Source of the DNA: an uncultured Chloroflexia bacterium
GTDB lineage: Bacteria; Chloroflexota; Limnocylindria; Limnocylindrales; CSP1-4
Length of the DNA: 64,000 bases
Assembly (NCBI GenBank): GCA_963746845.1
Contig: CAVVCZ010000005.1
Coordinates: forward strand, 320,001-384,000
Reading direction: 5' to 3'
Of the stretch, positions 1 through 61,700 are shown piece by piece. Within the stretch, counting starts at the first letter, position 1; each line of letters starts with the position of its first letter. The position numbers and the translations under genes are program-made. The notes under the pieces were generated by a model. That model was given only the letters and a program-made list of their open reading frames with translations, searched no databases and had not been told where the DNA came from.

Positions 1-3000
1 GGCAGCGCCGGAGCATCGGTCGCCACGACGACCGGCATCGAGAGCCCGGCCGGCTCGACGAGCCAGACGGCGGCCGTGAGCGCGGCGAGATCGCCGAGGA
101 GGCGGTCTGCCAGCCGTGAGCCGGCGGCCCGCTGGCCCTCGAGGAGCGCGATCAGTTCCTCGACGAGCTCCGGCCCGTCCTCCCGCTCCACCGCGATGGC
201 GGCCAGCCGATGGGCCCCGACGCTGCGCGTGTCGAGGGCCGCAAGATGACGGCCGTCCGGATCGAACAGGAAGGCACGGCCGCCGGTCATCCCGGCCCCG
301 AAGTTCGCCCCGACCGGTCCCAGCACCACGACCGTTCCGCCCGTCATGTACTCGCAGCCGTGCGGGCCGAGGCCCTCCACGACCGCCCGAGCACCGGAGT
401 TCCGCACGGCGAACCGCATCCCGGCCCGCCCCACGACATGCAGCCGCCCGCCCGTCGCACCGTACAAGCAGGTGTTGCCCGCGATCGCCTGGCGATGCGG
501 CTCTGCGGCGAGCCGGGGCTCCGGCGCGATGACGACGGTGCCGCCGGACAGGCCCTTGGCCACGTAGTCGTTCGCCTGCCCGACGAGCCGCAGCTGGACG
601 CCCGGGCCCGTGAAGGCGCCGAACGACTGGCCGGCCGCGCCACGCAGCCCGAGCGCGATCGGCCCGGCGAGGTCGCCCCGCTCGATCGCCCCGGTCAGAC
701 CGGCGCCGAAGGATCGGTCGGCCGTCGACAGCGCGAGCCCGTCGGCCCGGAACCCGGACTGGCCGCGGAGCGCCGCCACGAGCCGTCGTTCGAGCGGACT
801 GGCCTCACCGTGCTGGACGTCGCGACCCGCCGATTCCGGCGCTCGTCGTCGGGCGGGGCTCGCGGTCCACGACGCCGCACCGACGACCGGCGCCAGGTCC
901 AGCGTCTGCAGCCGGCGATCCGGCACGAGGAACCGGCGCGATTCGCCGACCAGCTCGCCGACCTCGCGCGCGCCGACGGCCGCCATCTCGATCCGCAGGC
1001 TCTCGGCCAGGGCGAGCGCAAACCGCTCGACCTGGTCGGGCGTGCCGGCGAACTTGGCCCGCAGGTCCTCGCGCTGCGTCGCGATCCCGGTCGGACACGT
1101 GTCGAGATGGCACTGACGGGCCATGTCGCAGCCGACCGCAACGAGCATCGCCGTCCCGAACGCGAACTCCTCGGCGCCGAGGAGCGCGGCGATCAGCAGA
1201 TCCCGGCCGGTGCGGAGCCCGCCGTCCGTGCGAAGTGCCACGCGGTCGCGCAGCCCGTTCCGGAGCAGGGTCTGGTGGACCTCGGCCAGGCCGAGCTCCC
1301 ACGGCGCTCCGACGTGCTTGATCGAGCTGAGCGGCGAGGCCCCCGTCCCGCCCGCATGCCCCGACAGGTGGACATACGTGGCGCCCGCCTTCGCGACGCC
1401 GGCCGCGATCGTCCCGACGCCGCGGCTCGCGACGAGCTTGACGCCGATCCGAGCGGCCGGGTTGATCGCCCGGAGGTCGGCGATCAGCTGGGCGAGGTCC
1501 TCGATCGAGTAGATGTCGTGGTGCGGCGGCGGGCTGATGTAGCTCATCCCGGGCTGGCCGCGCCGGAGCGATGCGATCCAGGCGGTCGCCTTCTTTGCGG
1601 GCAGCTGGCCGCCCTCGCCGGGCTTCGAGCCCTGGGCGATCTTGATCTCGAGCTGCTCGCCGCGGGCGAGGTAGGTGGCGGTCACGCCGAACCGGGCCGA
1701 GGCGACCTGCTTGATCCGGGCGTCATGGCGCTCGCCGTTCGGTCCCGGGCTGTACCAGCCCGGGTCCTCGCCGCCCTCGCCGGTGTTCGCGGCGCCGCCG
1801 GCCCGCTGGATCCCGATCGTCAGCGCCTGGTGGGCCTCGGGCGACAACGCGCCGACGGACATCGCGCTCACGACGAACCGGCGGGCGATCGAGCGCGCGG
1901 GCTCGACCTTCGCGAGCGGGATCGGGTCGTGGCCGCGCGGGCGGCGGATCCGGAAGAGGTCCCGGACCACGGTCGGGGTCGCGGCGACGGCGGGCGTCGT
2001 GGCCGGCGCCGCGGGATCGACGGCCTCGGGCGCGAACCCGGACGCCGCCTGGATGGTCGCAACGACCTTCGGTGCGTAGCGGTGGACCTCGCCATCGGCG
2101 CGGAACCGGGCGAACCCCGGGTCCTGGAGCTTGTTCGCGGGCGTCTCCGGGGCGATGGATCGCGAGGCGGCTCGCCGGCGCAGCTGACGCTCGGCCAGCT
2201 CCGCGAGCCCGACCCGGCCCGTCCACGCGGGGGCCGCCGGGAAGCACCGATCACGCACGTCGGCCGCGAGCTCGACCGACTCGAACAGCCCACCGCCGAT
2301 GTACGAGGCCGCGGTGCTGATCCCCATCCGGGCGAGCGTCTTGCGCAGGCCGGCGTCGAACGCGTCGATCAGGTTGCCGACGGTGGCGGCCGCATCGAGA
2401 TCCTCGGCGCCCCGGCCGCCTGCCAGCTCGGTCGCCAGCTCCACCGCGAGCCACGGAACGACGACGGTGGCACCCGTCGCGAGGACCATCGCGGCGCCAT
2501 GGACGTCGAGGACGTCGGCCGCCTCGACCACGACATCGGCCCGGCCCCGGAGCCCGGCCCGGGTCAGCGCCGTGTGGACGGCGCCCGCCGCGAGGATCGA
2601 GGGCACGGGCAGCCGGTCGGCGTGATAACCCCGGTCGCTCACGACGAGAAGGTCGATCCGGCCGCCGGCCGCGGCCACCGCTTCCGCGGCGAGGCGATCG
2701 AGGGCGGACGCGAGACCCGCCGGCCCGTCGATCGCCGCCCAGGTCGCATCCAGCCGACGCGTCGGACCGGGGAAGGCGCGGAGGAGTGCCGGGAGGTCCG
2801 CGAGGAACGGGCGCTCGAGCCGGAGCGTCCGCGACGCGCGCGGCGGGCCGCCGAGCAGGGGCGAGCGACGGCCCAGCTCGACCCGGAGATCCATGACGGC
2901 CCGCTCGCGCTCCGGGTCGATCGGCGGGTTCGTCACCTGGGCGAACGACTGGCGGAGGTGGTCGGCGATCGGCCGGTCGATCCGCCCGAGCGCCGGCGTC

Positions 3001-4562
3001 GGTGTGTCGTCGCCCATGCTCCACAGGGGCTCGTGCCCCTCGAGAGCCATCGTCCGGATGTCGAGGCGGGCGTTCTCCGCGTGCAGACCGGCGAGGAACC
3101 GCAGATCCGAGGTCGTCTCCGGCCCGGACGCGGCCGGTGCGAGGGACGAGTCATCCTCGCCGACCGGGGGATCGGCGTGGGTGGGGCGGGGCGCGTCGTG
3201 GATCGGCAGGCGCCGGAGGAGGTGCGCCTTCGCCTCCGCGTCCTCGAGGATCAGCCCGCGCCCGGGCTCGACGAGGAACAGCTCGCCCGGTCCGAGACGA
3301 CCGCGCCGGACCGTCTCCTCGGGGCGCAGCGGGATCGCACCCGCCTCGCTTGCAACCGCGACGAGCCGGTCCCGGGTGACCGCGAACGCGGCCGGCCGGA
3401 GCCCGTTCCGATCGGCGATGGCCCCGACGCGCCGGCCGTCGCCGAAGACGATCGCGGCCGGACCGTCCCATGGCGCGAGGAACCCGGCGGTCCGGCGGCG
3501 CAGCGCGGCGACATGCGGATGGGGCGCACGACGCAGCCCGAGCGCCTCGGGCATCGCCGTCAGGAGTGCCGAGCCGAGATCCCAGCCCGTCGCCACGAGG
3601 AGCTCCAGCATCTCGTCGAGCGACTGGGAATCGGAGCCGTCCGCCGTGAGGAGGGGACCGGACGTGCGCAGCTCGGCGGCCACGGTCGCCGACGCCCCGA
3701 TCGGGTCGCCCGCCCGTCCGCGTACCTGGGCGCGATTGCCGCGGACCGTGTTGATCTCGCCATTGTGGGCGATCGTCCGGAACGGCTGGGCGAGGCGCCA
3801 CGTCGGCTGGGTGTTCGTGGCGTAGCGCTGGTGGAAGAGGGCGTACGGCACGCGGATGGCGGGCGAGCGGAGATCCGGGAAGAGATCGGGCAGCCGGGCG
3901 CCCGTCACCAGGCCCTTGTAGACGATCGTCCGGCACGAGGCGGACGGGATCGCGATGACCTCGCCGAGCCCGGCCGTGCGGGCCGCCGTCTCGAGCCGTC
4001 GGCGGAGGACGACGAGCCGCGCCTCGAACGCGGCGTCGGACATCGGGGCGGCCGAGCCGGGCGCCGGCGGTCGATGGATGAACGCCTGGACGAACGCGGG
4101 CCGGCAGGCCCGGGCCGCGGCCCCGAGGGCCGACGGGTCGACCGGCACGGTCCGCCAGTCGATCACCGCGAGACCGGACGCGCGGATCGCCTCGGCGACG
4201 AGCCGGCGCGCGGCGCCGGCGCGGGCGCCGGGCCCGGTCCGCGGAAGGAAGAGCTGGAGAACGCCGGGTCGTTCGGCGCTCCATGTCGAGTCCAGGCCGA
4301 GGGCGCCGAGGACGGTGGGATCAAGGGGGAGCGAGACGCCGGCGCCATCCGATGACGCGCCGTCGGCCCCGAACGCCCCGCGGTGGGCCAGGGCGGCCAG
4401 GCCGCCGAGCGCCAGGGGGAGGACCTCCGCCCGGCGGCTCCCGCCGGCGTCCGCGACGAACCCGATGCCGCACGCGTCGTGCTCGAACGCCGGGTCGTAG
4501 AGCGGCGCGACGACGTCGTCCGATCGACGGCGAGGGCGACGCTGTGGCGGTTCGACGGTCAT
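1..4562 (-). CDS. gltB: Glutamate synthase large subunit (3' end runs off the window)
   Basis: Manual reverse-strand translation from ATG 4562 gives LYDPAFEHDACGIG (N-terminal Cys of the GATase domain), LEIKIAQGSKPGEGGQLP and GCEYMTGG. The first and last motifs were checked to be in the same frame. It is absent from the ORF track, consistent with no stop before position 1. Confidence 0.95.
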   Translation of the reverse strand, partial: MTVEPPQRRPRRRSDDVVAPLYDPAFEHDACGIGFVADAGGSRRAEVLPLALGGLAALAHRGAFGADGASSDGAGVSLPLDPTVLGALGLDSTWSAERPGVLQLFLPRTGPGARAGAARRLVAEAIRASGLAVIDWRTVPVDPSALGAAARACRPAFVQAFIHRPPAPGSAAPMSDAAFEARLVVLRRRLETAARTAGLGEVIAIPSASCRTIVYKGLVTGARLPDLFPDLRSPAIRVPYALFHQRYATNTQPTWRLAQPFRTIAHNGEINTVRGNRAQVRGRAGDPIGASATVAAELRTSGPLLTADGSDSQSLDEMLELLVATGWDLGSALLTAMPEALGLRRAPHPHVAALRRRTAGFLAPWDGPAAIVFGDGRRVGAIADRNGLRPAAFAVTRDRLVAVASEAGAIPLRPEETVRRGRLGPGELFLVEPGRGLILEDAEAKAHLLRRLPIHDAPRPTHADPPVGEDDSSLAPAASGPETTSDLRFLAGLHAENARLDIRTMALEGHEPLWSMGDDTPTPALGRIDRPIADHLRQSFAQVTNPPIDPERERAVMDLRVELGRRSPLLGGPPRASRTLRLERPFLADLPALLRAFPGPTRRLDATWAAIDGPAGLASALDRLAAEAVAAAGGRIDLLVVSDRGYHADRLPVPSILAAGAVHTALTRAGLRGRADVVVEAADVLDVHGAAMVLATGATVVVPWLAVELATELAGGRGAEDLDAAATVGNLIDAFDAGLRKTLARMGISTAASYIGGGLFESVELAADVRDRCFPAAPAWTGRVGLAELAERQLRRRAASRSIAPETPANKLQDPGFARFRADGEVHRYAPKVVATIQAASGFAPEAVDPAAPATTPAVAATPTVVRDLFRIRRPRGHDPIPLAKVEPARSIARRFVVSAMSVGALSPEAHQALTIGIQRAGGAANTGEGGEDPGWYSPGPNGERHDARIKQVASARFGVTATYLARGEQLEIKIAQGSKPGEGGQLPAKKATAWIASLRRGQPGMSYISPPPHHDIYSIEDLAQLIADLRAINPAARIGVKLVASRGVGTIAAGVAKAGATYVHLSGHAGGTGASPLSSIKHVGAPWELGLAEVHQTLLRNGLRDRVALRTDGGLRTGRDLLIAALLGAEEFAFGTAMLVAVGCDMARQCHLDTCPTGIATQREDLRAKFAGTPDQVERFALALAESLRIEMAAVGAREVGELVGESRRFLVPDRRLQTLDLAPVVGAASWTASPARRRAPESAGRDVQHGEASPLERRLVAALRGQSGFRADGLALSTADRSFGAGLTGAIERGDLAGPIALGLRGAAGQSFGAFTGPGVQLRLVGQANDYVAKGLSGGTVVIAPEPRLAAEPHRQAIAGNTCLYGATGGRLHVVGRAGMRFAVRNSGARAVVEGLGPHGCEYMTGGTVVVLGPVGANFGAGMTGGRAFLFDPDGRHLAALDTRSVGAHRLAAIAVEREDGPELVEELIALLEGQRAAGSRLADRLLGDLAALTAAVWLVEPAGLSMPVVVATDAPAL

Positions 4563-4719: not shown

Positions 4720-5949
4720 TCAGCCCTGGTAGGCCACCTCGCCATGGACGGCGAGGTCGATGCCGAGCTCCTCGTCCTTGGCCGAGATCCGGATCCCGAG
4801 GACGAGATCGACGACCTTGACAATCACGAAGGTGGCGACGACGGCGTAGGCGATCGTCGCGACGACCGCGACCAGCTGGGTCAGGACCTGGCCCGGATTG
4901 CCGTCGATCAGGCCGGAGTAGGCCGACTGGATGGCGGAGGTGGCGAAGACGCCGGTCGCGATGGCCCCGAAGACGCCGCCGACCCCGTGGACCGCGAAGA
5001 CGTCCAGCGCGTCATCGACCTTGAGTCGAGCGCGGAGGAGCGTCGCGCTGTAGCACAGCCCGCCCGCGACGAGACCGATGATGATCGCCCCACCGGGGGT
5101 CACGTAGCCGGAGGCCGGCGTGATCGCGACAAGCCCCGCGACGGCGCCGCACGCCGCGCCGACGACGCTGACCTTGCGGTGGTGTAGATAGCTCGCGCCG
5201 ACCCAGGTCAGGGTCGCCGCCGCGGCGGCGGTGTTCGTGACGATGAACGCGCTCGCGGCGAGCCCGCCGGCCGTCACTGCCGACCCGGCGTTGAAGCCGA
5301 ACCAGCCGAACCACAGGAGACCCGCGCCCAGGATGGTCATCGGGATGTCGTGCGGCTCCATCCGGTCGCCGTTGATGACGCGCCGGCCGATCAGGAGAGC
5401 GACGATCAGCGCCGAGAGACCGGACGAGGCGTGGACGACGGTGCCGCCCGCAAAGTCCAGGGCGCCCAGCTTGTACAGCCAGCCGTCGGTCGCCCAGACC
5501 CAGTGCGCGATCGGGGAGTACACGAGGATCGACCAGAGGATCGTGAAGAGAACGAAGGACGCGAAGCGCTTGCGCTCGGCGAAGGCGCCCGTGATCAGCG
5601 CGGGCGTGATCGCGGCGAACATCAGCTGGAAGGCCGCGAACAGGACGAACGGGATCGTCGTCGCGTAGATCGTGCTCGGCTCGAGCCCCACGTTGAAGAA
5701 CCCGACAAAGTCGAGGTTGCCGACGAGCCCGGGGATCCCGAACAGGTTGGCATCCGGGGCGAAGGCGAGGCTGAACCCGATCAGGATCCAGACGATGCTC
5801 ACGATCGCCAGCCCGAAGAAGCTGTGCATGATCGTCGAGAGGACGTTCTTGCGCCGGACGAGGCCACCGTAGAACAGGGCCAGACCGGGCAACATGATCA
5901 TGACGAGCGCTGTAGCCGCCAGCATCCAGGCGGTATCGCCGCTATCCAT
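4720..5949 (-). CDS. amtB: Ammonium transporter
   Basis: MDSGDTAWML start with GGAGG RBS; motifs PGLALFYGG, DFAGGTVVH, LLWFGWFGFNAGS, DDALDVFAVHG. Confidence 0.97.
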   Translation of the reverse strand: MDSGDTAWMLAATALVMIMLPGLALFYGGLVRRKNVLSTIMHSFFGLAIVSIVWILIGFSLAFAPDANLFGIPGLVGNLDFVGFFNVGLEPSTIYATTIPFVLFAAFQLMFAAITPALITGAFAERKRFASFVLFTILWSILVYSPIAHWVWATDGWLYKLGALDFAGGTVVHASSGLSALIVALLIGRRVINGDRMEPHDIPMTILGAGLLWFGWFGFNAGSAVTAGGLAASAFIVTNTAAAAATLTWVGASYLHHRKVSVVGAACGAVAGLVAITPASGYVTPGGAIIIGLVAGGLCYSATLLRARLKVDDALDVFAVHGVGGVFGAIATGVFATSAIQSAYSGLIDGNPGQVLTQLVAVVATIAYAVVATFVIVKVVDLVLGIRISAKDEELGIDLAVHGEVAYQG

Positions 5950-6076
5950 CAATCCCGTCCTCCGCGCGGCGGCCATGACTCCCGTAGGCCGCTCTGGCGG
6001 GAGGATGGGCGTCACGCGCGGGCGGTTCGCCGCCGGGCGGGTCCCGAAAAGGATGCGATCAGGTTGCGATTGGCTG

Positions 6077-16707: not shown

Positions 16708-17183
16708 TCGAGGGCGGCCGGCCGGCCGGCGTCAAGGCGGCGTCGCCGGACCGACCGCGGACGGTCCTCCAGGGTGGCCGCGCCAAGGCCTATCGACCGT
16801 TGCCGGAGCCCGATCGACGGGCGGCCTACGACGAGGCACTCGCAGCGTACGAGCGCGGCGACTTCTTCGAGGCGCACGAGCTCCTCGAGCCGGCCTGGAT
16901 GGGATCCGACGACCTCGCCGAGCGGGAGCTCCACCAGGGCCTGATCAAGCTGGCCGCGGGGTTCGTGCACGGCGTCCGGGGCAACCCGCTCGGGATCGCC
17001 AAGAACCTCCGGGGTGCCCGAGACCATCTCGCCGGCGCCGTCGGGACCGATGCGGAGGCCTGGTCCGGACTGGATCTCGAGGCGCTGATCGCCGCGATCG
17101 ACGAGCGGCTCGCCCGTCTGGCCGCCGACCCGACCGATGCCTCGATCGATCCGCCGCCGCTGCCGAGGAGGGAGACAGGATGA
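16704..17183 (+). CDS. DUF309 domain protein
   Basis: [14 protein letters not shown]...[15 protein letters not shown]; GTGA overlap with the upstream stop. Confidence 0.88.
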
Positions 17184-17569
17184 ATCCGTCCGGGGTGCCG
17201 TCGATCCAGCCCCGCGATGCCGCGATCGCGGTCGGCGTCGCCGGTGACGCCGCGGCCGCCGGCGACCCGTCGGCCCCCCTGATCGTCGACGTTCGCGAGC
17301 TCGACGAGTTCGTGGCGGACCGGATCGCCGGCGTCGCGCTGGTGCCGGTGTCCCAGCTCCTGACCCGCTTCGAGGAGCTGCCGCGTGACCGGCCGCTCCT
17401 GATGGTGTGCCGGTCCGGCAGCCGGTCCGCCGCCGCGACCCAGTTCCTCCTCCAGCGGGGCTGGACGGACGTGCGGAACATCGACGGCGGGATGCTCGCG
17501 TGGCAGCGCAACGGGCTGCCGGTGCGAACGGGTCCGCCCGGCCCGGATGAGGGTTCCCTCCCCCGCTGA
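17180..17569 (+). CDS. Rhodanese-like sulfurtransferase
   Basis: IVDVRE, active-site loop CRSGSRS, IDGGMLAW; ATGA overlap. Confidence 0.9.
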   Translation: MNPSGVPSIQPRDAAIAVGVAGDAAAAGDPSAPLIVDVRELDEFVADRIAGVALVPVSQLLTRFEELPRDRPLLMVCRSGSRSAAATQFLLQRGWTDVRNIDGGMLAWQRNGLPVRTGPPGPDEGSLPR

Positions 17570-17585: not shown

Positions 17586-19052
17586 TCAGGCCCGGGCCTT
17601 GAGCGCCTTCTCGCGCCGGCGCCGGTCGCGCCACTCCCGGATCTGCGTCTTGTGGGCGAATGCCCAGCCGATCGCGATGAAGATCGCGAAGTTGATGATC
17701 CCGACCGTGTTCGCCGCGAGGTAGCCGAGCTGCTGGCCGATCTCGCCGTTGATCGTCAGCGCCGGCACGGTCGCTCCGAACAGGCCCAGCTGGAAGAACG
17801 GCGCCGCGGGCGCGATGTTCGCCCGGATGCTCCCCGTCTGCACCCCGGCGGTGGTCGTGCCGCCGACGATGACCGCGTTCGGGCCGAGGATCAGCGGCGC
17901 GCCGCCGGCGTTGCCCTCGGGCGGCAGGTCGCTGACCACGAGGCGCTTCCACTCCGGGATGTCGCCGCCCGTCGTGGGGACGCCCCAGTACAGCGTGGAC
18001 TGCGGCGTCTTGCCGTCGCTGCCGCCGACGGCGTACAGGTTTCCGTTCGCCGCGAAGCCGTTGATGTTCGTGCGCGGCGCCGGGAGGTTGCCGGGGCCGG
18101 ACCGGACCCCGAACTGGACGAGGGTCGTCGCGCTCGTGCCCGTCCCGAACTCACCACGCTGCACGGTCCCGGTCGGCGTGCCGTCGGCCATCGTGCCGCC
18201 GTAGACCCAGACGTAGCTGCCCACGAGCGCGGCCGAGGCGTCGGTCACGGGCGTGTAGAGCTTGGCCGGCTGGACAGCCCACTTGCCGGGGGCGCCGGTC
18301 TTGTCGAACGTGGCCTTCCAGACCGTGTTGGTCGGTCCCGTCCCGTTCGTCCCGCCGACCAGGAACAGCCCGTCCGTCCCCGACAGGAGGACGGCACCGG
18401 CCCGCGGCTCCGGCAGGCCCAGGTCGAGCTTGGCGTCCTGGGCCGTCTGCCAGGTGCCGAGCTCACCGGTCGTCGCGTTCGGCGTGAGGACGAACACCGT
18501 GTTGGTCGGCTTGCCGTCCGCCCCAAACCCGCCGACGACGTAGATCTTGCCGCCCGAGTAGACGATGCCCGCATCCGACCGCGCGGCCGGCAGCTTCGGG
18601 CCGTCTGCGCTCCACTTGTCGAAGTTCCCGGCGCCCGAGACCTTCGACACGAACGTCGTGTCGACCGCGGTCTTCCCGTCGGACCCGCCGATGTACAGCA
18701 GGGTCGTGCCGGACTGGACGACCGCGCCGTCCGTCCGCGGCGCGGGCAGGGCGATCTCGGGCGGCGACGGAGCCCACGGCACGACGGCCCCGACCGGCGC
18801 CGGGCACGGCAGCGACTGGTTCCCCTCGGGGCAGAAGTTGACCGGGCTCCACGCGAGGATGCCGAGGTCGATCGTCTTGTTGACGGTGAAGTAGTAGGCG
18901 CGGTCGGGGATGTACCCGAGCATGAAGATCAGGAGGATGAACCAGGCGAACGCCTTGAGCGAGGCCCAGATCCAGCCGCTCGCGTCGAGCAGGCCGAACA
19001 GGGCCCGTCCGCGCGTCTGCGTCGTCCCCGGGTTCAGGGCCTGCTGCGCCAT
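17586..19052 (-). CDS. Membrane-anchored kelch-repeat beta-propeller protein
   Basis: N- and C-terminal TM helices flank six hydrophobic-GG kelch motifs (YIGG, VVGG, LVGG, VYGG, AVGG, IVGG); GGAGG RBS. Confidence 0.8.
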   Translation of the reverse strand: MAQQALNPGTTQTRGRALFGLLDASGWIWASLKAFAWFILLIFMLGYIPDRAYYFTVNKTIDLGILAWSPVNFCPEGNQSLPCPAPVGAVVPWAPSPPEIALPAPRTDGAVVQSGTTLLYIGGSDGKTAVDTTFVSKVSGAGNFDKWSADGPKLPAARSDAGIVYSGGKIYVVGGFGADGKPTNTVFVLTPNATTGELGTWQTAQDAKLDLGLPEPRAGAVLLSGTDGLFLVGGTNGTGPTNTVWKATFDKTGAPGKWAVQPAKLYTPVTDASAALVGSYVWVYGGTMADGTPTGTVQRGEFGTGTSATTLVQFGVRSGPGNLPAPRTNINGFAANGNLYAVGGSDGKTPQSTLYWGVPTTGGDIPEWKRLVVSDLPPEGNAGGAPLILGPNAVIVGGTTTAGVQTGSIRANIAPAAPFFQLGLFGATVPALTINGEIGQQLGYLAANTVGIINFAIFIAIGWAFAHKTQIREWRDRRRREKALKARA

Positions 19053-19123
19053 CGTCCTCCCATCCATCCGGGCGCCCCTGCGCCCGGCTCGATTGCCGGC
19101 TCCCCGGCCGTGCTGCGTGACTG

Positions 19124-20278
19124 CTACTTGACCTCGAGGGTCCCGAGCATCGTCGTCGGATGTACCTGGCAGAGGTACGTGTAGTTGCCGCTCTTCAGGG
19201 CCGGGACTGCGTACGACACCGTCTTGGGCCCGAGGAAGAACGCGGTGTCACCCATCGGGACGACGGACTTGCCGGCGTCCTCGATCACGATGTTGTGCTG
19301 GACCGTCGGGTCCTGGTTGTCGAACTTCAGCGTGAATGCCGTGTCCGCCTTGGCCTCGAGGGTCGTGGGCTGGAACCCGGCCGTCGCCGCGCCGCTCGGC
19401 GCCGTCACGGTCAGGACCGGCGCGTTCGGGTCGATCGAGGCCGCCGGAGCGGCGGACGATCCGCTGCCACCGGTCAGCGCGTCGAGGTAGCAGTCCGGGA
19501 ACGGCGTAGCGCCCGGTGCCGGCTTGTAGTTCGGGTCGCGCCATCCGGTGAACGTCTCGACCTTGCCGGTGGCCGGATCGATGATCGGCTCGTTCGTGGA
19601 CGGGTCGCGCTTCTCGTACGTGCCCTCGTTCGTGGCCCGCAGGAACGCGATCAGCTCGTCGATCTGGCGGTAGTTGAGCGGGCCGGGCGGGTTGCCCTTG
19701 TCCGACCAGACTGGCATCTGCGAGTTCGCGTTGCCGCACACATAACGGCCGCCGACCTGGAGGACGTTCCGGAGATAGCCCTCGTTGAGGTGAGCGTAGA
19801 GCTTCTCCTGGGAGTTCAGCTGCGGCCCGATGTAGCCCGCCGTGGCGGCGTCCGGCTCGTTGGGGCCGAGGCCGTTCGGGCCGTGGCAGCGAGCGCAGTT
19901 CGCCTCGAACAGGTTGTAGCCGCGCTGCACGTCGACCACCTGCTGGGCGGCCTCCTCGACCGCGAGGCGCGGCTTGGACAACCCGAGCGGCGAGCCGATC
20001 TCGTAGAACCAGTAGCCGACGATGAACAGACTGACGAAGATCACCGTCAGGAACCCGACCCAGCGAGCCGCGCCGGACTGGCGGACGATCCCGGCGGAGC
20101 GAGCCGGGGTCAGCCCGGCGTTCGACTTGATCGCGGGCGGGGCGGTGAACCGGTCCGCGGTCAGCTGGCTCTGCGGGATCGTCGCCGGCAGACGCTCCTC
20201 GGCGCCGCCGGCATCCGCGGCCGGCTCCGGCGTGCCCTCGGGCACCGGGGCCGGCGTCGACGGGGTCTGGTCGGTCAT
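19124..20278 (-). CDS. Membrane-anchored cytochrome c fused to a C-terminal cupredoxin domain
   Basis: TM helix; heme motif CARCH with candidate axial Met (QMP); type-1 copper ligands HNIV...CQVHPTTM. Confidence 0.88.
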   Translation of the reverse strand: MTDQTPSTPAPVPEGTPEPAADAGGAEERLPATIPQSQLTADRFTAPPAIKSNAGLTPARSAGIVRQSGAARWVGFLTVIFVSLFIVGYWFYEIGSPLGLSKPRLAVEEAAQQVVDVQRGYNLFEANCARCHGPNGLGPNEPDAATAGYIGPQLNSQEKLYAHLNEGYLRNVLQVGGRYVCGNANSQMPVWSDKGNPPGPLNYRQIDELIAFLRATNEGTYEKRDPSTNEPIIDPATGKVETFTGWRDPNYKPAPGATPFPDCYLDALTGGSGSSAAPAASIDPNAPVLTVTAPSGAATAGFQPTTLEAKADTAFTLKFDNQDPTVQHNIVIEDAGKSVVPMGDTAFFLGPKTVSYAVPALKSGNYTYLCQVHPTTMLGTLEVK

Positions 20279-20952
20279 CAGATGCAGCCGGTCGGGGTAA
20301 GGGGCGGGATGATGCCCGGCTGGCCGACGGCGACCGGCAGCGGGCCGAGGGTGATCTTGCCCGTGTCGAGGGTCAGCACGCCGCCGCTGTCGACGGTCGC
20401 CGAGAACCGGTCCATGCTCCGCGGCGCCGGGCCGTACTGGGCCCCGGCCGCCTTGATCCCGAGCCGGTCATAGCGCGACCCGTGGCAGGGGCACTCCAGC
20501 CAGAAGTTCTTCAGGCACGGGTTCGGCCGGCAGCCGAGGTGCGGGCAGCGCTGGTACAGCCCGCGGACGTTCAACGGCGTGCCATCGCCGGTCGTGTCCT
20601 CGCCGGGCGTGTAGCTCTGCTGGCTCGTGTTGATCAGGACGACATACGCCCGGGCCTCCGGGAAGTACGCCGGGAAGCCCTCGTCGATCGGCAGGTTCGA
20701 GTTCGCGAGCTTGACGTCCTCGTAGGTCCCGATCTTGACCTTGCTCCCGAACCCGCCGCTCAGGTTCGGCCAGATGAACCCGATCGTGCCCGCGGTGACC
20801 TCGAGCAGCCACAGCGTGATCGCGCCGCCGATCGAGTAGCGGAGCAGCTGGCGGCGCGAGATCCCCTGGACCTGGCTTCGCCGGAGCGATTTGATCGACT
20901 GCGGAACGAGAGCGCGCGGCTGGTCCGCGGGCTCGACGTGGTAGTTGCTCAT
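20278..20952 (-). CDS. qcrA: Rieske [2Fe-2S] subunit of a Rieske/cytochrome b complex
   Basis: Tat-like SRRQLL plus TM helix; CPHLGC and CPCHGSRY boxes. Confidence 0.93.
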   Translation of the reverse strand: MSNYHVEPADQPRALVPQSIKSLRRSQVQGISRRQLLRYSIGGAITLWLLEVTAGTIGFIWPNLSGGFGSKVKIGTYEDVKLANSNLPIDEGFPAYFPEARAYVVLINTSQQSYTPGEDTTGDGTPLNVRGLYQRCPHLGCRPNPCLKNFWLECPCHGSRYDRLGIKAAGAQYGPAPRSMDRFSATVDSGGVLTLDTGKITLGPLPVAVGQPGIIPPLTPTGCI

Positions 20953-20994
20953 GCGCGCGTGCTCGGGGTGGTCATGCAGGTCATGGTCCCGTGA

Positions 20995-21612
20995 TCAGAG
21001 GGAGAAGTGGAGGCCCGGCGAGGAGTTCTCGAAGAAGGGCAGGAAGGGGATGACGAAGCTGTAGCCGGGGCCGCGGAAGAAGATGCCGACGAAGGTCAGC
21101 GTCAGCCCGAGGCCGCAGAACAGCGTGAACAGGACGACCGCGGTCTTCCGCTCGGACGGCCGGGTCGTCGTCAGGCTGCCACGATCCACGTACGGGATCA
21201 GGGCCGCCCCGACGAGCACGAGCAGCGGGGTCAGGACCCCGGCGACCGTCGGGTGGAAGTAGGCGAGCAGCTCCTGGAGCCCGAGGAAGTACCACGGCGC
21301 CTTGGCGACGGCCGGGGTGACGTTCGGGTTCGCCAGCTCCTCCAGCGGCGCGTTGATGAACAGGCCCATCAGGAGGAGGAAGACGCTCATCATCCCGGCC
21401 GCGAGGAACTCGATCGAGAGCAGGTGCGGCCAGGTCATGACCGTGTCGTCGGGCTCCTTCTGGACCCGGACGACCGCATCCTGCTTGACGAGCGCGAGCA
21501 GCCGGTACGGCCGCGCCGACATCGGCACGCGCTGCTTGTCGATCTCCGTTCGACGAGCCGGGTCGACCGGCAGGACCACGCGCTTGTCCGGCGGGGACTT
21601 CGTGTCGGTCAT
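20995..21612 (-). CDS. Cytochrome b C-terminal subunit (subunit IV / PetD-like)
   Basis: TWPHLL, APLEELANPNVTP, KAPWYFLGLQELL (PEWY-equivalent), LIPYVDR. Confidence 0.88.
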   Translation of the reverse strand: MTDTKSPPDKRVVLPVDPARRTEIDKQRVPMSARPYRLLALVKQDAVVRVQKEPDDTVMTWPHLLSIEFLAAGMMSVFLLLMGLFINAPLEELANPNVTPAVAKAPWYFLGLQELLAYFHPTVAGVLTPLLVLVGAALIPYVDRGSLTTTRPSERKTAVVLFTLFCGLGLTLTFVGIFFRGPGYSFVIPFLPFFENSSPGLHFSL

Positions 21613-21729
21613 CGGCTCACACCCTCCGGGCCGATAGGGCAGCCGAGCGCAAGGCGGAGCCGAGCACGGGAGCGAGCGCACTCATGTGCGTGAGCGAGCG
21701 CGCGGAGGCGACAACGCGGCGAACGGCTG

Positions 21730-22458
21730 TCATAGCGGCCCGGAGATCCCGCCGTCCTTGCGGATGCGCCAAAAGTGGACCGCAAGGAAGATCGCCGCCG
21801 CGAGCGGGAAGACCATGATGTGGAGCACGTAGAACCGCAGGAGCGTGTTCTGCCCGACCTCCAGGCCGCCCAGCAGCATCCGGTTGAACGGGGTGTTGAT
21901 CAGTGGCGCGTAGCCACCCATGTTCGTTCCGATCGTGATCGCCCAGAACGCGATCTGGTCCCACGGAAGCAGGTAGCCGCTGAAGCTGAGCATGATCGTC
22001 AGGAAGAGCAGGACGACCCCGACGACCCAGTTGAACTCGCGTGGCGGCTTGTATGCCCCGTGATAGAAGACCCGCATCATGTGGAGGAAGACGAAGAACA
22101 CCATCAGGTGAGCGGCCCATCGATGGATGTTCCTGGTCAATAGCCCGAACGTGACCTGGCTCTGGATGTCCAGGATGTTCGTGTATGCGAGCGTCGCCGA
22201 CGGAACATAGAAGAACATGAGATACACGCCGGTGATCGTCAGGACGAGGAACAGGAAGAAGGACAGGCCGCCGAGGCAGAACGTGTAGGCGAACTTCACG
22301 GCGTGCTGGCGGACGCGGACCGGGTGGATGTGCAGGAAGACGTTGTTCATCACCGCGTACGCCCGCGACCGTTCGTCGTTGGGGTACGGCTGACGGAAGA
22401 GCGAGCGCCAGACCGGGCTCCGGCGGATGGTCTGGTCCACCCGCTCCAGGAAACTCAC
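21730..22458 (-). CDS. qcrB: Cytochrome b N-terminal subunit (cytochrome b6-like)
   Basis: FCLGG, TGVYLMFFYVPS, RNIHRWAAHLMVFFVFLH, GYLLPWDQIAFWA, RFYVLH-x14-H, GISGPL; GTG overlaps the upstream stop. Confidence 0.94.
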   Translation of the reverse strand: MSFLERVDQTIRRSPVWRSLFRQPYPNDERSRAYAVMNNVFLHIHPVRVRQHAVKFAYTFCLGGLSFFLFLVLTITGVYLMFFYVPSATLAYTNILDIQSQVTFGLLTRNIHRWAAHLMVFFVFLHMMRVFYHGAYKPPREFNWVVGVVLLFLTIMLSFSGYLLPWDQIAFWAITIGTNMGGYAPLINTPFNRMLLGGLEVGQNTLLRFYVLHIMVFPLAAAIFLAVHFWRIRKDGGISGPL

Positions 22459-24290
22459 CTGGCTCCTCCTGCGACGCCGGGCGTGCCGGCCAGCTGCGCG
22501 TCGCGGTACGACTCCTTGTAGAGCCGCCCGTCGGTCGAGATCTCCTGCAGCTCGAACCGCTCCATCGTAATGGCGTCGAACGGGCAACGCTTGACACACA
22601 AGGCGCAGCGGATGCAGCGCTCCTCGTCGAGGATCATCGCGGCCCCGTTCTCCCAGCCGTACGACTCCTCGATCTCCGGGAGCAGGCCCTCGGTCTTCAG
22701 CTGGTTGACGTCGACCATGTGGATGACGCCCTCGGGGCAGACGTCGGCGCAGGCGCCGCACAGGACGCACCGGAACGGGTCGAACCAGATGTTGTAGTTG
22801 CACATCAGGCAGCGGGTCGACTCCGCCACCGCGGCCGTCGCGTCGTAGCCGTATTCGACCGGGGTGTTGAAGTTGATCTCCGGGTCGGTCGAGGGCATCC
22901 GCGCGGCGAGCGGCGCCATCGGGATGTGCTGGCGCGGCAGGACGTCGTAGAGCTCCGGCATGTCGTGCCGCCAGGAGCTCGTGATCTTCACGTTCGGGCT
23001 GACCGTGACGTCGGTCCGGCCGGCGAGGTACCGGTCGATCGCGTAGGCGCACTTCTTCCCGTGGCCGGCTGCCTCGATGAGGGTCGTCGGGCCGGTCACG
23101 AAGTCGCCGCAGGCGAAGACGCCGCGGACGTTCGTCGCATACGTCGCCGGGTCGACCTTCACCCGGCCGCGGTTGATCTCGAAGGTCGACTCGACTGGCA
23201 GGAAGGTCAGGTCGGCGGCCTGCGACACGGCCGGGATGACGACGTCCGCGGGGATCGTGAACTCGCTGCCCTCGATCGGGACCGGCGACCGGCGACCCGA
23301 GGCGTCCGGCTCGCCGAGCCGGTTGCGGATGAACCGGACCGCCGTCACGTGGCCGTCCTTGCCGAGGACCTCGATCGGGCTCGCGAGGAACTCCATCCGG
23401 ACGCCCTCGCGCTCGGTCTCGCCGAGCTCCTCCTCGTCGACGACGAGCTCGGACCGCGTCCGGCGGTAGACGATCGACACGTGGTCGGCGCCGTGGCGGA
23501 GGCTCGTCCGCGAGCAGTCCATCGCGGTGTAGCCGCCACCGATCACGACGACGTCCTTGCCGACGTACAGCTCCTGGCCGAGGTTCGCCTTCTTCATGAA
23601 GTCGACGCCGTAGTCGACCCCGTCGAGTTCGCCGCCCGGGATGTCGAGCGCGACCGGGTCCATCGCGCCGGCCGTGAGGGCGACCGCGTCGTAGTCCCGC
23701 TGGAGCTCCTCGAACGTGACGTCGACGCCGACCGTCGTGTTGAACCGGAACTCGACGCCGAGGCGCTCGACGAGCCGGACATCCATCTCGATCGCCTCGC
23801 GCGGGAGGCGGAACGCGGGGACGCCGATCAGCATCGTCCCGCCGCCGTACGGCAGGCTGTCGAAGACCGTGACCCCGACACCCTTCATCGCGAGCTCGCG
23901 GGCGACCGCCAGCCCGGCCGGGCCGGCACCCACCACCGCGACCCGCTCCGGACGGGCGGTGATCCGGGGCATGACGTCGGGGATGCCCGAGGCCTCGTGC
24001 CACTCGACGAGGAACCGCTTCATCGCCCGGATCGCCAGCGGCCGGTCGATGTCGCCGCGGCGGCAGGCCCGCTCGCACGGGGCGGAGCAGACGTACGAGC
24101 ACATCGCGGCGACCGGGTTCGGCTCGCGCGACAGGATGTAGCCCTCCTCGAACCGGCCCTCGGCCGCGAGGTTCAGGTAGCCGCGGCAGTTCGTCCCGAC
24201 CGGGCACGCCTCCTGGCACTCGATGTTGCACTGGAGCCAGGAAGCGTCGACGGGCTGAACGAGGAATTCCTGGAAGGGGTCGATGGCCAA
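22455..24290 (-). CDS. FAD-dependent NAD(P)H oxidoreductase, GltD/NfnB/DsrL-like, with C-terminal 2x[4Fe-4S] ferredoxin
   Basis: CQEACP, MCSYVCSAPCERAC, VVGAGPAG, IGGGYTAMDC...YRR, CGD, RCLMC, CVLCGACADVCP, CIRCALCVKRCP. Start uncertain: TTG 24290 after GAAAGG, or ATG 24323. Confidence 0.9.
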   Translation of the reverse strand: MAIDPFQEFLVQPVDASWLQCNIECQEACPVGTNCRGYLNLAAEGRFEEGYILSREPNPVAAMCSYVCSAPCERACRRGDIDRPLAIRAMKRFLVEWHEASGIPDVMPRITARPERVAVVGAGPAGLAVARELAMKGVGVTVFDSLPYGGGTMLIGVPAFRLPREAIEMDVRLVERLGVEFRFNTTVGVDVTFEELQRDYDAVALTAGAMDPVALDIPGGELDGVDYGVDFMKKANLGQELYVGKDVVVIGGGYTAMDCSRTSLRHGADHVSIVYRRTRSELVVDEEELGETEREGVRMEFLASPIEVLGKDGHVTAVRFIRNRLGEPDASGRRSPVPIEGSEFTIPADVVIPAVSQAADLTFLPVESTFEINRGRVKVDPATYATNVRGVFACGDFVTGPTTLIEAAGHGKKCAYAIDRYLAGRTDVTVSPNVKITSSWRHDMPELYDVLPRQHIPMAPLAARMPSTDPEINFNTPVEYGYDATAAVAESTRCLMCNYNIWFDPFRCVLCGACADVCPEGVIHMVDVNQLKTEGLLPEIEESYGWENGAAMILDEERCIRCALCVKRCPFDAITMERFELQEISTDGRLYKESYRDAQLAGTPGVAGGAR

Positions 24291-24567
24291 GTCGAGGACG
24301 TGCCTTTCGAGTGTGGTCCACATCCCGGGGAGTCGTGCGTCCGGCAAGCCTGCAAGGCACCGCGGCCGGCGGTCCGAATCTACCATCGCGGGCTCGGCCT
24401 TCGCAAAGACGGGCGGTGCCGTCCGAGCGTGGCTGGACGGGCCGTCCGACGCACCCCGAGAGGCCTCCCCGCGTGCTCCGCGAGGTTGACCGCCGACGCG
24501 CACGCAGCTACGCTCGCGAGGGGGATCATTCGTGCGGCCGACGGGTGGCCGGGGAGGACAGCGGATC

Positions 24568-26367
24568 TTGACGGCGGGCGAGCTCACCTTCCTGGCCCTC
24601 GGCCTGCTCCTCGGGGTGGCCACTGGCGCCGCCCTCATCGAGATCCTCCGGTCCCGGCCGCGGGCACCGCGCGAGGTCCGCGTCACGGTCGCACGGAACT
24701 CGATTCACGCACGATTCCCGGCCACGCTGTCCGATCCGACCGCGTCGTTCGAGATGACCGGCCCGGCCCCGGGCGGGCCCGGCGATCGCCGCTGGCACGA
24801 CGAGCGGCCGGCGGAGCTGGCCGTCCTCCCCGGGCGGCGGATCGACGACGCGGGACCCCCGATGCGGTCCGCCACTGGAACACCTGTTCCATCCCGGCCG
24901 GCGCCGATCTGGCTATCGCCACTGGCGGCGGGATCGACGACGATGGTGCCGGTCCCGATGTCGATCGAGCCGGACCCGCTCACGGCGGCCCTCCGATCGA
25001 CCGCAGCCGCCGTGGCGACGGCCGCGATGGCCGGGCCGGGTAGCCGGGAGGCAACGACGCATCCGATGGCGACTGGCAACGCGGCTCCGTCCGGCGGCTC
25101 GGGCGCGGGCGGACACGGCGGCGGCTCCGATGGGCCGCCGGCGGATGCCCCGCGCGCCACGCCACCCGACGCCGGTCCGTGCGCGGACGAACGGCGCGTC
25201 GCCGACGAGCGCTGCGCGGTCGCATCCCGGGCACGGGCGGGCGCCGACCAGGCAGCCGAGGCACTGCGCGCCGCGCAGCGGACGCACGACGAGCACATGG
25301 CCGCCGCGGCGGCGGGCGCCCTGGCGGCGGATCCCCGTTCGGTCCGGACCGCGAAGGAGGCCGCGCAGGATCGATTCCGCGACGCGCGGGCGGCCGCGAA
25401 CACGCGCGACGACGTCGAGAGCGCCGCCCGCGCCTGGCTGGCCGAGATCAACCAGATCAACAACGAGACCCGCGAGGCCGCGGCGCGCGCCGAGCGCAGC
25501 CGCGCGGCAGCCACCGCGCTGGGGATGACGCTGGAGCGACTGGCGGTCGAGGCCGACGCGGCCCGGATTTCCGCGGCACGAGCCGACGAGGCCTGCATCG
25601 CCGCCCGTGAGACGGTCGCCGCGTGCGACGAGGCGCGGACGCTGGAGGCCGCCGCGGCCGCGAGGGCCGCCGCACAGGCGCCGGCAGCGCCACCTGCTCC
25701 GGCCGCCCCGGTCGCCGCGGCCGCCCCGATCGCCGACAAGCCGGGTCCGGCCCCGGCCGCCACGCCCGAGCCCGAGGAGGAGTTCGCCCTCAGCGGGTCG
25801 ATGGGCTCGCGGGCCGGCCAGGACGCGCTGATCCTGCGGATCCTGCGCGGCGACCGCGGCGCGATGCAGCACGCCGTCGCACGACTGGCGACCCCCGGCA
25901 GCGATGAGGCTCGTCACTGGCAGGCGCTCCTCGGCGGGTTCGCGGACGCATTGATCGCCCGGGCGATCGAGGCGTCGGCGTTCGACTTCCCGGACGACCA
26001 CTACTTCTGGGGCCCGTTCAACCACACGCAGAACCGCGACATCGCGGCCGGGCTGTCGTCCCTCGGCTTCCGGTTCGACGGGTTCGGCGGGTGGGTCGAC
26101 GACCGGATCCCGAGCCAGCGCGACCTCGCCCTCGCCGTCGGTTATGCGGGCCTCGACCCGATGCGGATCCGGCGCTGGCCGAACGAGACGGAGACACGCG
26201 AGCTGCTGTCGGGCGTCCGGGTCGCCGCCGACGAGTACGTGGCGGGCGCCGCCGGTGGGCTGACCCTCGGCGAGCTGGTCACGCTCCTCGGGCGCCGGGC
26301 CGACGGCCTGACCGAGCTCTGGAACAACTGGGGCACGGTCCGGCCGATCCTCCTCGAGGGCGGCTGA
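24568..26367 (+). CDS. Hypothetical membrane-anchored coiled-coil protein
   Basis: GGGGAGG RBS plus TTG; N-terminal TM helix, Pro-rich linker, Ala-rich helical region, globular C-terminus. Confidence 0.75.
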   Translation: MTAGELTFLALGLLLGVATGAALIEILRSRPRAPREVRVTVARNSIHARFPATLSDPTASFEMTGPAPGGPGDRRWHDERPAELAVLPGRRIDDAGPPMRSATGTPVPSRPAPIWLSPLAAGSTTMVPVPMSIEPDPLTAALRSTAAAVATAAMAGPGSREATTHPMATGNAAPSGGSGAGGHGGGSDGPPADAPRATPPDAGPCADERRVADERCAVASRARAGADQAAEALRAAQRTHDEHMAAAAAGALAADPRSVRTAKEAAQDRFRDARAAANTRDDVESAARAWLAEINQINNETREAAARAERSRAAATALGMTLERLAVEADAARISAARADEACIAARETVAACDEARTLEAAAAARAAAQAPAAPPAPAAPVAAAAPIADKPGPAPAATPEPEEEFALSGSMGSRAGQDALILRILRGDRGAMQHAVARLATPGSDEARHWQALLGGFADALIARAIEASAFDFPDDHYFWGPFNHTQNRDIAAGLSSLGFRFDGFGGWVDDRIPSQRDLALAVGYAGLDPMRIRRWPNETETRELLSGVRVAADEYVAGAAGGLTLGELVTLLGRRADGLTELWNNWGTVRPILLEGG

Positions 26368-57245: not shown

Positions 57246-57246
57246 G

Positions 57247-58941: not shown

Positions 58942-59023
58942 CGATGCTCCTCTAGACTCGTCCGAGGCCGTCGCCAGCAGGGAGTCGAACGTCGCCGGCG
59001 ATCGCCACTTGTGATCCGGCCCG

Positions 59024-59054
59024 GCTCCCGTTACCGTTCCCGCTAACGTTCACA
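59024..59054. promoter_or_regulatory. LacI-type operator array between araB and the regulator
   Basis: Minus strand reads GTGAAC GTTAGC GGGAAC GGTAAC GGGAGC; it resembles the array at 60354. Confidence 0.6.
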
Positions 59055-59111
59055 TCGGCGGTACCGTACCATCCGGGCCGACGTGAGGCAAGGCCGCAGT
59101 CGATCTTGGGG

Positions 59112-60215: not shown

Positions 60216-60319
60216 CCGGCAGGATCCGCGGCTCCCGGACGACGGGGCCGGGGATCTCCTCGAGGACCCTGGCGCCGGTTCCCGGGCGCCGATCCCCGGT
60301 CCTCGGTCACCAAAAGTCC

Positions 60320-60383
60320 TTGACGGACGTTGCGCCCGGTGCTAGGTTGCAGCGGTTCCGTTAGCGATAACGGGAACGATCAC
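60320..60383 (+). promoter_or_regulatory. Sigma70 promoter followed by LacI-type operator array
   Basis: TTGACG 60320-60325, 17 nt spacer, TGn-TAGGTT 60343-60348; then GGTTCC GTTAGC GATAAC GGGAAC GATCAC. Confidence 0.7.
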
Positions 60384-61690: not shown

Positions 61691-61700
61691 GCGCACACCC

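Follow-up and report, generated by a model that had tools for sequence, protein, structure and literature searches.

A flavoprotein gene heads the operon of the only complex III in an aerobic Limnocylindria bacterium: a possible route from quinol to NADP+

Why should a flavoprotein of apparent NADP(H) type be encoded at the head of an operon for a cytochrome b6/Rieske complex? The question is raised by a stretch of 64,000 nucleotides (the window; positions 320,001 to 384,000 of contig CAVVCZ010000005.1, assembly GCA_963746845.1; G+C content approximately 71%) from an uncultured Chloroflexia bacterium of soil, placed by GTDB in Limnocylindria, Limnocylindrales, CSP1-4. Six closely packed genes, all on the minus strand, occupy positions 17586-24290 and encode a flavoprotein, cytochrome b6, subunit IV, a Rieske protein, a cytochrome c-cupredoxin, and a kelch protein. 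The original prediction, made from the letters alone, had given this order, and gene calls and profile searches with Pfam and NCBIfam bear it out. We concluded that the organism relies on this operon for its sole quinol:cytochrome c/cupredoxin oxidoreductase (complex III), an enzyme of the split b6/haem-cn/APWY type. By analogy with described complexes, the flavoprotein is probably a subunit of this cytochrome bc complex; if it is, the chances that NADP+ reduction is its main direction appear to be even. A sole complex III with an attached flavoprotein that would pass the low-potential electron from the quinol-oxidizing (Qo) site mainly to NADP+ is the best explanation we can offer, and we advance it tentatively. 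The features of the operon are as follows.

22455-24290, minus strand: predicted NADP(H)-type flavin adenine dinucleotide (FAD)/four-[4Fe-4S] flavoprotein, 611 amino acids (Pfam, NCBIfam, motifs, PDB matches, AlphaFold2 (AF2)/Foldseek)
21730-22458, minus strand: cytochrome b6, 242 amino acids (PF00033, 154.8 bits)
20995-21612, minus strand: subunit IV, 205 amino acids from the ATG at 21612 (longest open reading frame (ORF) to 21681; PF00032)
20278-20952, minus strand: Rieske [2Fe-2S] protein, 224 amino acids (PF00355)
19124-20278, minus strand: membrane-anchored monohaem cytochrome c fused to a type-1 copper cupredoxin (PF00034, PF13473)
17586-19067, minus strand: kelch beta-propeller protein (PF01344)
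24291-24531, no strand: intergenic region, presumed promoter region of the operon, common to the divergent gene (from the flanking gene calls)

The TGA of the flavoprotein gene and the GTG of the b6 gene overlap in a GTGA at 22458-22455, and a Shine-Dalgarno sequence (GGAGGAG, 22469-22463) lies five bases 5' of the GTG start. Base 20278 is common to the TGA of the Rieske gene and the ATG of the cytochrome c gene. Both overlaps had been pointed out before and are present at these positions. The remaining three intergenic gaps comprise 117, 42, and 56 bases. Downstream, the operon borders on a convergent rhodanese gene (17180-17569, plus strand), and upstream on a divergent gene without known family (24532-26367, plus strand). 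The flavoprotein gene starts with TTG at 24290; an alternative in-frame ATG occurs at 24323, and the length of 611 residues in most database calls agrees with the TTG start. Orthologue alignments of subunit IV begin at the Met encoded by the ATG at 21612. A promoter scan of the operon returned no promoter-like (sigma-70-like) site, a result of little weight at 70% G+C, and a terminator scan returned two terminator-like sites where 1.8 are expected, which is uninformative. In soil RNA libraries, small shares of the words (5-8%) match the operon stretch. Contigs from four soil RNA libraries (85% likeness) represent short pieces of relatives' genes and touch 27-30 of 30 bins, with near-empty end bins left unused. 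Three of these contigs (X4 record 22, X7 records 28 and 29) span the flavoprotein/b6 junction; a single transcript, the strand, and the expression level are not readable from such contigs.

The position of the complex in the respiratory chain was derived from the genome holding the operon (G000, 92% complete). This genome contains one cytochrome b, that of the operon, and one COX1, and neither an NrfD-type alternative complex III nor a cytochrome bd was found in it. All five of the other genomes with a completeness of 91% or more likewise have a single cytochrome b, and it adjoins the flavoprotein gene. Because this is the sole cytochrome b, accompanied by one CuA oxidase and by neither of the two alternative enzymes, the complex must, judging from gene content, run forward from quinol to the oxidase. 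Besides its CuA motif, the oxidase subunit CoxB has an additional cupredoxin domain with type-1 copper at the C-terminus (G000:C5:303891-308641; L099:3891-8641), and a multi-helix protein of 361 residues encoded 3' of coxC ends in a third cupredoxin domain. These domains are paralogous to the cupredoxin of the bc operon and suggest a copper relay across operon and oxidase that would be membrane-tethered throughout. A complex I operon with the order nuoA-B-C-D-H-E-F is present as well (G000:C1:240000-256000). The window further contains genes for L-arabinose isomerase (araA), a class II aldolase (araD), an FGGY kinase, LacI, and sugar ABC transport (55072-63997), in line with the sugar-using heterotroph that had been expected.

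Cytochrome b6 displays the haem-ligand His pairs 112/126 and 213/228, a CLGG motif at 61, whose Cys binds haem cn covalently, and a conserved RIRKDG stretch in the C-terminal part. Its match to spinach b6 (177.6 bits) starts at residue 59. The preceding extension of 58 residues is not found in solved b6 proteins and bears a conserved LH43xH45P motif, of which His43 is invariant in 11/11 and 10/10 aligned b6 sequences. Subunit IV has three predicted membrane helices, the Qo motif APWY at 105, and approximately 63 cytoplasmic N-terminal residues. The Rieske protein carries a twin-arginine motif (RRQLL at 33), CPHLGC at 136, and CPCHGSRY at 154, which includes Ser159 and Tyr161. Its best PDB matches are 9rk4 (1.8e-10) and 9rk3 (5.6e-9), ahead of all b6f/bc1 Rieske proteins (PetC 2.4e-6). 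These two entries are Kuste4569 and Kustd1480, the Rieske proteins of flavoprotein-bearing complexes of the anammox bacterium Kuenenia stuttgartiensis (PMC12954380). With its split b6 and subunit IV, a Rieske gene in the same operon, and the CxGG and APWY motifs, the window complex has the features of the subfamily G/APWY clade. The cytochromes ExtP and ExtQ of selenite/tellurite reduction operons were considered as the identity of b6 and subunit IV and rejected, as the equivalog cut-offs were not reached (ExtP NF040969, 289.4 bits against 290; ExtQ, 54.1 bits against 150).

The flavoprotein consists of a core resembling NfnB and GltD and a C-terminal 2x[4Fe-4S] domain, with Pfam assigning Fer4_20 to residues 19-101, Pyr_redox_2 to 116-411, and 2x Fer4 to 501-580. 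Eight Cys fall within the Fer4_20 domain, and an invariant R493-C494-xx-C497 is followed by two complete CxxCxxCxxxCP motifs. Nucleotide motifs comprise GAGPAG (FAD site) from 121, GGGYTA from 251, and YRR from 275. No hydrophobic or membrane segment was found in a motif and helix scan of the sequence, consistent with a cytoplasmic protein. All three properties, i.e. cytoplasmic location, YRR motif of NADP(H) type, and an extra 2x[4Fe-4S] module, had been part of the original prediction and held up. The YRR is kept in the Limnocylindria flavoproteins, in three paralogues of the same genome, and in Acinetobacter GltD, and the presence of the motif as in NADPH-using relatives points to NADP(H) specificity. 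The best PDB sequence matches are NfnABC (9n5u_A, 373 bits; 9bov_A, 366 bits), followed by StnABC (8oh5_C, 313 bits), NfnB (4ylf_B, 299 bits), and GltD (2vdc_G, 225 bits). The AF2 model has a mean predicted local distance difference test (pLDDT) score of 83.6; its top Foldseek matches, 9bov_A, 8oh5_C, and 9n5u_A, come in the same order as the sequence matches, and the NfnABC/StnABC fold matches span its full length. Like the flavoprotein of the window, the NfnABC/StnABC (Bfu-type) and NfnB proteins (9bov, 9n5u, 8oh5, 4ylf, 5jca) combine Fer4_20, an FAD/NADPH core, and a C-terminal 2x[4Fe-4S] domain and align over the full length. The partners in NfnAB/NfnABC systems are, however, NfnA (FNR-like) or HydB/HydC-like proteins, whereas the window flavoprotein adjoins membrane haem proteins. 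Partners of the NfnA/HydB/HydC type are found beside paralogues in the same genome (L098 and L096), not beside the window flavoprotein.

The resemblance to GltD raises the possibility that the flavoprotein is simply a glutamate synthase small subunit whose partner is the GltB from positions 3-4562 of the window. GltD-family models do match it weakly, and gltB lies on the same strand, 17.9 kb away and without an adjacent gltD. However, the scores remain far below the cut-offs (TIGR01317, 217 against 447.7; TIGR01318, 272 against 483), the protein has the additional 2x[4Fe-4S] domain, and its gene is translationally coupled to b6. In a tree of 82 sequences, the GltD-type clade, which holds the Acinetobacter sequence and a paralogue from the same genome that adjoins an NfnA-like gene, is set apart from it by a 100* branch. 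The original prediction had named grouping with true GltD in the service of GltB as the outcome that would undo it. No such grouping was obtained, and model scores, tree position, and the separation from gltB rule out an assignment as GltD, to which we give next to no credence.

In the same tree, bc-linked flavoproteins form two starred clades. One consists of Limnocylindria sequences with an alphaproteobacterial sister, the other of sequences from Nitrospirota, Acidobacteriota, and Eisenbacteria. The second clade has Ser/Thr-Leu-Glu at the position of YRR, which hints at NADH use. Forcing all 11 bc-linked flavoproteins into one clade costs 3.0 log-likelihood units (approximately unbiased (AU) test, p-AU 0.467); a single recruitment to bc complexes is thus neither rejected nor demonstrated. 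The alphaproteobacterial sister, from a metagenome-assembled genome (L084, 5905-11509), has the same architecture and is encoded beside a second pyridine-nucleotide oxidoreductase and an alpha/beta pair of a 2-oxoacid:ferredoxin oxidoreductase.

The arrangement of the operon is conserved in relatives; a lack of such conservation had been named among the outcomes that would undo the original prediction. Among 31 genomes of the order, a set that includes the unpublished G010, 30 contain an orthologue of the flavoprotein with at least 79% identity, either whole or as a fragment at a contig end; none was found in G012 (83% complete). The six-gene order is kept in five of five long loci, three from a family with genomes of approximately 1.1 Mb and two from the genus of the window, so it is not due to chance. 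Conservation within the operon is highest for the flavoprotein and b6, with between-family identities of 82-83% and 83-85%, respectively, followed by subunit IV (72-74%), Rieske (62-64%), cytochrome c-cupredoxin (41-43%), and kelch (37-40%). In the class, a third family retains the order flavoprotein-b6-subunit IV-Rieske-cytochrome c (L105, L114, L018, L019), which is thereby common to three families; no kelch or cupredoxin matches were found in the loci of the third. A homologue search in protein databases returned relatives with at least 87% identity to the flavoprotein and at least 69% to kelch, and relatives of the operon are abundant in soil and freshwater metagenomes.

Beyond the class, a scan of public genomes with a generic dinucleotide-fold pattern, which provides a sample and not a census, yielded at least 79 loci of the flavoprotein family. 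Among the matches listed, b6/subunit IV genes adjoin the flavoprotein gene in nine loci from four phyla; besides Chloroflexota, these are Acidobacteriota, Nitrospirota, and Eisenbacteria. Ten hits have both ends intact, and the nine linked loci are all among them. The sample yielded no Brocadiales locus. The neighbourhood search that had been proposed thus recovered the flavoprotein-b6 linkage, and kelch was not found outside the order in the eight loci searched. We also surveyed 301 Chloroflexota genomes of at least 80% completeness (flavoprotein at E<=1e-130, b6 at E<=1e-80; counts include the unpublished G068, G232, G197, and G292, on which by themselves none of our conclusions depends). 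The flavoprotein was detected in 67 of them and this type of b6 in 101; 64 have both, three the flavoprotein only, and 37 b6 only. In six genomes from two genera of the window's own family (G175, G193, G202, G210, G226, G258; 93-95% complete) neither was found, and a PF00033 scan of five of these (all but G226) returned weak matches of 24-36 bits.

The closest described systems are the Kuenenia complexes Kuste4569-4574 and Kustd1480-1485, which are of the b6 type and include an NAD(P) oxidoreductase with FAD and four FeS clusters (PMC12954380). All subunits co-migrate, and the Rieske potentials are +303 and +335 mV; the Ser and Tyr of the Rieske box are tied to this high potential. An AlphaFold3 model traces a path from the haems through the four FeS clusters to FAD; on this path, haem cn is connected with the first cluster by an additional haem b that has His43 of each b6 as ligands. 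The complexes are proposed to reduce NADP+, and input from NADPH is also discussed (PMC12954380). Like these complexes, that of the window comprises a split b6 and subunit IV, a Rieske protein, and an operon-encoded FAD/four-FeS oxidoreductase; Kuste4571 has an N-terminal His at 43 as does the window b6, and the flavoproteins on both sides resemble NfnABC, although the Kuenenia b6 and flavoprotein were compared by description and not by sequence. The likeness to anammox complexes that had been suspected is therefore borne out by the best Rieske matches and the NfnABC-like flavoprotein. Kuenenia as described has an HAO-like subunit and cytochromes with six or eight haems. In contrast, the window has a monohaem cytochrome c with a cupredoxin, its operon begins with the flavoprotein gene and has the Rieske gene in fourth place, and the host is an aerobic heterotroph with this complex as its sole complex III.

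Short b6 proteins with CxGG, APWY, and co-occurring oxidoreductases, as seen here, define subfamily G (PMC5600118) or the APWY clade (PMC4122944). Dibrova et al. 2017 described that short 'subfamily G' cytochromes b co-occur with large NAD(P)-binding, Cys-rich oxidoreductases, with gene proximity 'in many other cases' (PMC5600118), and Limnocylindria-like genomes may be among those in their tree. The members listed include Chloroflexi, Nitrospirae, and Planctomycetes, on the basis of phylogeny only (PMC5600118, PMC4122944). Kao and Hunte 2014 suggested that APWY-clade complexes run in reverse (PMC4122944); here, a CuA oxidase and the absence of another complex III in the genome speak for the forward direction instead. 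In a limited search of literature on Limnocylindria, the cytochrome mentioned was a cytochrome d terminal oxidase, and a Rieske/cytochrome b complex was not found mentioned. The operon design is known as a class from anammox bacteria and comparative genomics. The expectation of novelty therefore stands for the Limnocylindria form, i.e. its aerobic host, its role as sole complex III, the monohaem-copper relay, and the apparently lineage-specific kelch partner, but not for the pairing of b6 with an oxidoreductase, which is in print (PMC5600118, PMC12954380).

Two further types of system share single elements with the operon. The b6f complex of chloroplasts and cyanobacteria consists of b6, subunit IV, and Rieske, contains haem cn, and binds FNR, which has been proposed to feed haem cn at the N side. 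The window complex differs in having no cytochrome f, in place of which (canonical PetBDCA) a class-I cytochrome c with a cupredoxin is encoded, and in having an operon-encoded, GltD/NfnB-like flavoprotein with FeS clusters instead of a plant-type FNR. Membrane-tethered cupredoxins bridge a quinol-oxidizing module and an oxidase in the form of sulfocyanin (Sulfolobus SoxM) and auracyanin (Chloroflexus); in the window genome, by comparison, one cupredoxin is fused to cytochrome c and a second one to CoxB.

On this basis, the following mechanism can be proposed. At the outer face, electrons would pass from the Rieske protein to the tethered monohaem cytochrome c, its fused blue-copper domain, and the cupredoxin-bearing CuA oxidase. 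At the cytoplasmic face, the NfnB-like flavoprotein would dock and, through its set of four [4Fe-4S] clusters, connect FAD/NADP(H) with the low-potential branch (haem bN/haem cn). The low-potential electron from quinol oxidation at Qo would then leave to NADP+ rather than reduce a quinone at the N side, and NADPH would thereby become a product of respiration, in line with the proposal for the anammox complexes; the FeS wire is probably reversible. Physical attachment, which we infer from homology to the co-migrating Kuenenia subunits, is favoured because of the flavoprotein/b6 overlap with its Shine-Dalgarno sequence, the conserved linkage, the co-occurrence in 64/67 genomes, and the joint absence in two genera. 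Electron exchange with haem bN/cn appears plausible. A net flow toward NADP+ is suggested because the Rieske protein has the high-potential signature (Ser159, Tyr161), the nucleotide site has the YRR motif of NADPH type, and relatives of the flavoprotein use low-potential FeS partners such as the oxidoreductase at L084.

If this holds true, the only complex III of aerobic Limnocylindria would send one electron of each quinol over cytochrome c, cupredoxin, and the oxidase to oxygen and the other over haem cn, the FeS clusters, and FAD to NADP+, and respiration would directly set the anabolic NADPH pool even in genomes of approximately 1.1 Mb. Arguments on the role of flavoproteins in Rieske/cytochrome b complexes have so far come from anammox bacteria, which grow slowly and have multihaem subunits. 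Among the forms seen, that of Limnocylindria is the simplest, with one haem c, one copper, a three-helix subunit IV, no competing complex III, and an oxygen-using host. It would thus be a convenient biochemical target that could decide if a Q-cycle enzyme reduces NADP+. That quinol-driven NADP+ reduction by complex III is widespread among bacteria and not a peculiarity of anammox appears rather doubtful to us.

Several observations weigh against quinol-driven NADP+ reduction. The PntB transhydrogenase is encoded in the window genome and in five of five relatives tested, so the flavoprotein is not needed as the sole source of NADPH. The energetic argument depends on the type of quinone, and no marker of the two known menaquinone pathways was detected, in spite of a full respiratory chain: the window genome gave no match to PF02621 (MqnA/D) and a best MenB match of 120 bits against a cut-off of 342.7, and MqnC was found in none of five genomes (G000, G016, G019, G022, G039). 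Subunit IV has three helices in the window against five in the anammox models as described, and the window complex is without a multihaem cytochrome. Outside the class Limnocylindria, orthologues of the flavoprotein (41-43% identity) are unlinked to b6 in 12 of 12 loci. In addition, 37 of the 101 b6-bearing Chloroflexota genomes gave no flavoprotein match at E<=1e-130, nor, at E<=1e-100, did the eight of them whose b6 loci were retrieved, and all eight loci keep CLGG and LHxHP. The N-terminal His motif is therefore not specific to the presence of the flavoprotein. In six of these eight loci (not L126 and L129), no redox-enzyme family that might provide an alternative N-side partner was found among the 13 ORFs scanned upstream of b6. 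Because so many b6 genomes lack it, the flavoprotein is an optional module of this b6 clade, and the core complex works without it.

Electrons might instead flow in the opposite direction, from NADPH through the FeS wire of the flavoprotein to haem cn and the N-side quinone site, which would turn the complex into an NADPH:cytochrome c oxidoreductase, acting like FNR on b6f or as a built-in, non-pumping NADPH:quinone reductase. We rank this possibility nearly as likely as NADP+ reduction, although we regard it as somewhat improbable. The wire is made of reversible NfnB/GltD-type parts, electron transfer from NADPH to quinone is strongly downhill (the option is discussed in PMC12954380), NADPH supply is already covered by PntB, and the retained CLGG Cys for haem cn and C-terminal RIRKDG are compatible with a working N-side quinone site. 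On the other hand, approximately 250 mV would be wasted despite the presence of a complex I operon, the same objection that is made for Kuenenia (PMC12954380); NADPH rather than NADH would be an odd catabolic donor, and the high-potential signature of the Rieske protein (Ser159, Tyr161) would not be needed.

The direction of flow would be of no concern if the flavoprotein were a soluble NADPH:ferredoxin-type oxidoreductase that leads the bc operon of Limnocylindria for co-regulation, co-transcribed and unattached. The stand-alone orthologues in other Chloroflexota families, which have no conserved partner gene, would fit this picture, as would the sister at L084 that serves a 2-oxoacid:ferredoxin oxidoreductase cluster and the many b6 genes of this clade without a flavoprotein. 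Yet we consider it unlikely in view of the 4-nucleotide translational overlap with b6, the flavoprotein-b6 linkage in four phyla among the matches listed, and the co-occurrence in 64 of 67 genomes with joint absence in two genera. Moreover, the five of five tested genomes with an unlinked flavoprotein still hold this type of b6 elsewhere (61-65% identity), and the Kuenenia subunits co-migrate (PMC12954380). Slightly less probable still is a safety valve or redox sensor that drains or reports over-reduced b haems under a reduced quinone pool and a high proton-motive force, limiting the formation of semiquinone and superoxide at Qo without serving as a bulk source of NADPH. Such a function might suit an aerobe whose single oxidase is served by no other complex III, and the flavoprotein is optional within the b6 clade; avoidance of reactive oxygen species as a driver of bc evolution is reportedly a theme of Dibrova et al. 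2013. However, a subunit of 611 residues and five cofactors that retains 82% identity between families and is kept in genomes of approximately 1.1 Mb suggests a core metabolic flux.

The two remaining gene products of the operon had been described as accessory subunits not familiar from such complexes. The cytochrome c-cupredoxin contains CARCH at 128, the copper ligand set His328, Cys370, His373, and Met377, and one helix (73-91); with this single CxxCH, no multihaem cytochrome was found in the operon. The kelch protein has an N-terminal helix (approximately 29-52) and a C-terminal helix (approximately 442-471) with the propeller in between. Its Cys79 and Cys88 are invariant, and the membrane-proximal parts, to which both belong, are its best-conserved regions. 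In the AF2 model (pLDDT 76.6), a six-bladed propeller is predicted with high confidence at approximately 85-420, and the top Foldseek matches are the protein-binding kelch domains of LZTR1, KLHL12, and Keap1. In family f2 the kelch gene overlaps or abuts the cytochrome c gene. The protein is likely an accessory or assembly subunit at the outer face. As no homologue outside the order was obtained by tblastn (E<=1e-2) in eight loci, kelch appears to be the only lineage-specific subunit of the operon. The claim of unfamiliar subunits thus remains valid for kelch and not for the cytochrome c-cupredoxin, since another bc locus from Chloroflexota (L131) also shows a cupredoxin match, 3' of its cytochrome c gene. 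In two few-contig assemblies (L013 and L014, from G004 and G009), the genes for cytochrome c-cupredoxin, Rieske, and kelch are split over frames, likely by sequencing indels rather than as pseudogenes.

Some neighbouring genes and paralogues were also recorded. The gltB gene of the window encodes a large subunit of 1520 residues (3-4562, minus strand) and lies downstream of the ammonium transporter gene amt (4720-6015, minus strand). No small-subunit gene was found beside it, and this glutamate synthase may be ferredoxin-dependent. A second Rieske protein of 194 residues, 50% identical to the first, is encoded away from any cytochrome b (G000:C5:486545-487135; L100:4543-5127), among co-oriented genes with a PadR regulator two genes upstream, and may be an alternative Rieske subunit. 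In the complex I operon, no separate nuoG or nuoI gene was seen; nuoF is followed by a gene for a protein of 925 residues (L096:5522-8299, minus strand) with Fer2_4, Fer4_20, Pyr_redox_2, and 2x Fer4 domains that resembles NfnA of NfnABC, and then by five co-oriented ORFs (182, 129, 664, 557, and 296 residues), presumably nuoJ-N. A paralogue of the 925-residue protein is encoded approximately 4 kb from nuoD in the 1.1-Mb genomes, and complex I may thus carry an NADP(H) module, too. The divergent neighbour of the operon (24532-26367) encodes an alanine-rich protein of 611 residues without a Pfam family, which is found beside the operon genus-wide with 50-68% identity; in the family with 1.1-Mb genomes, its position is occupied by AhpC.

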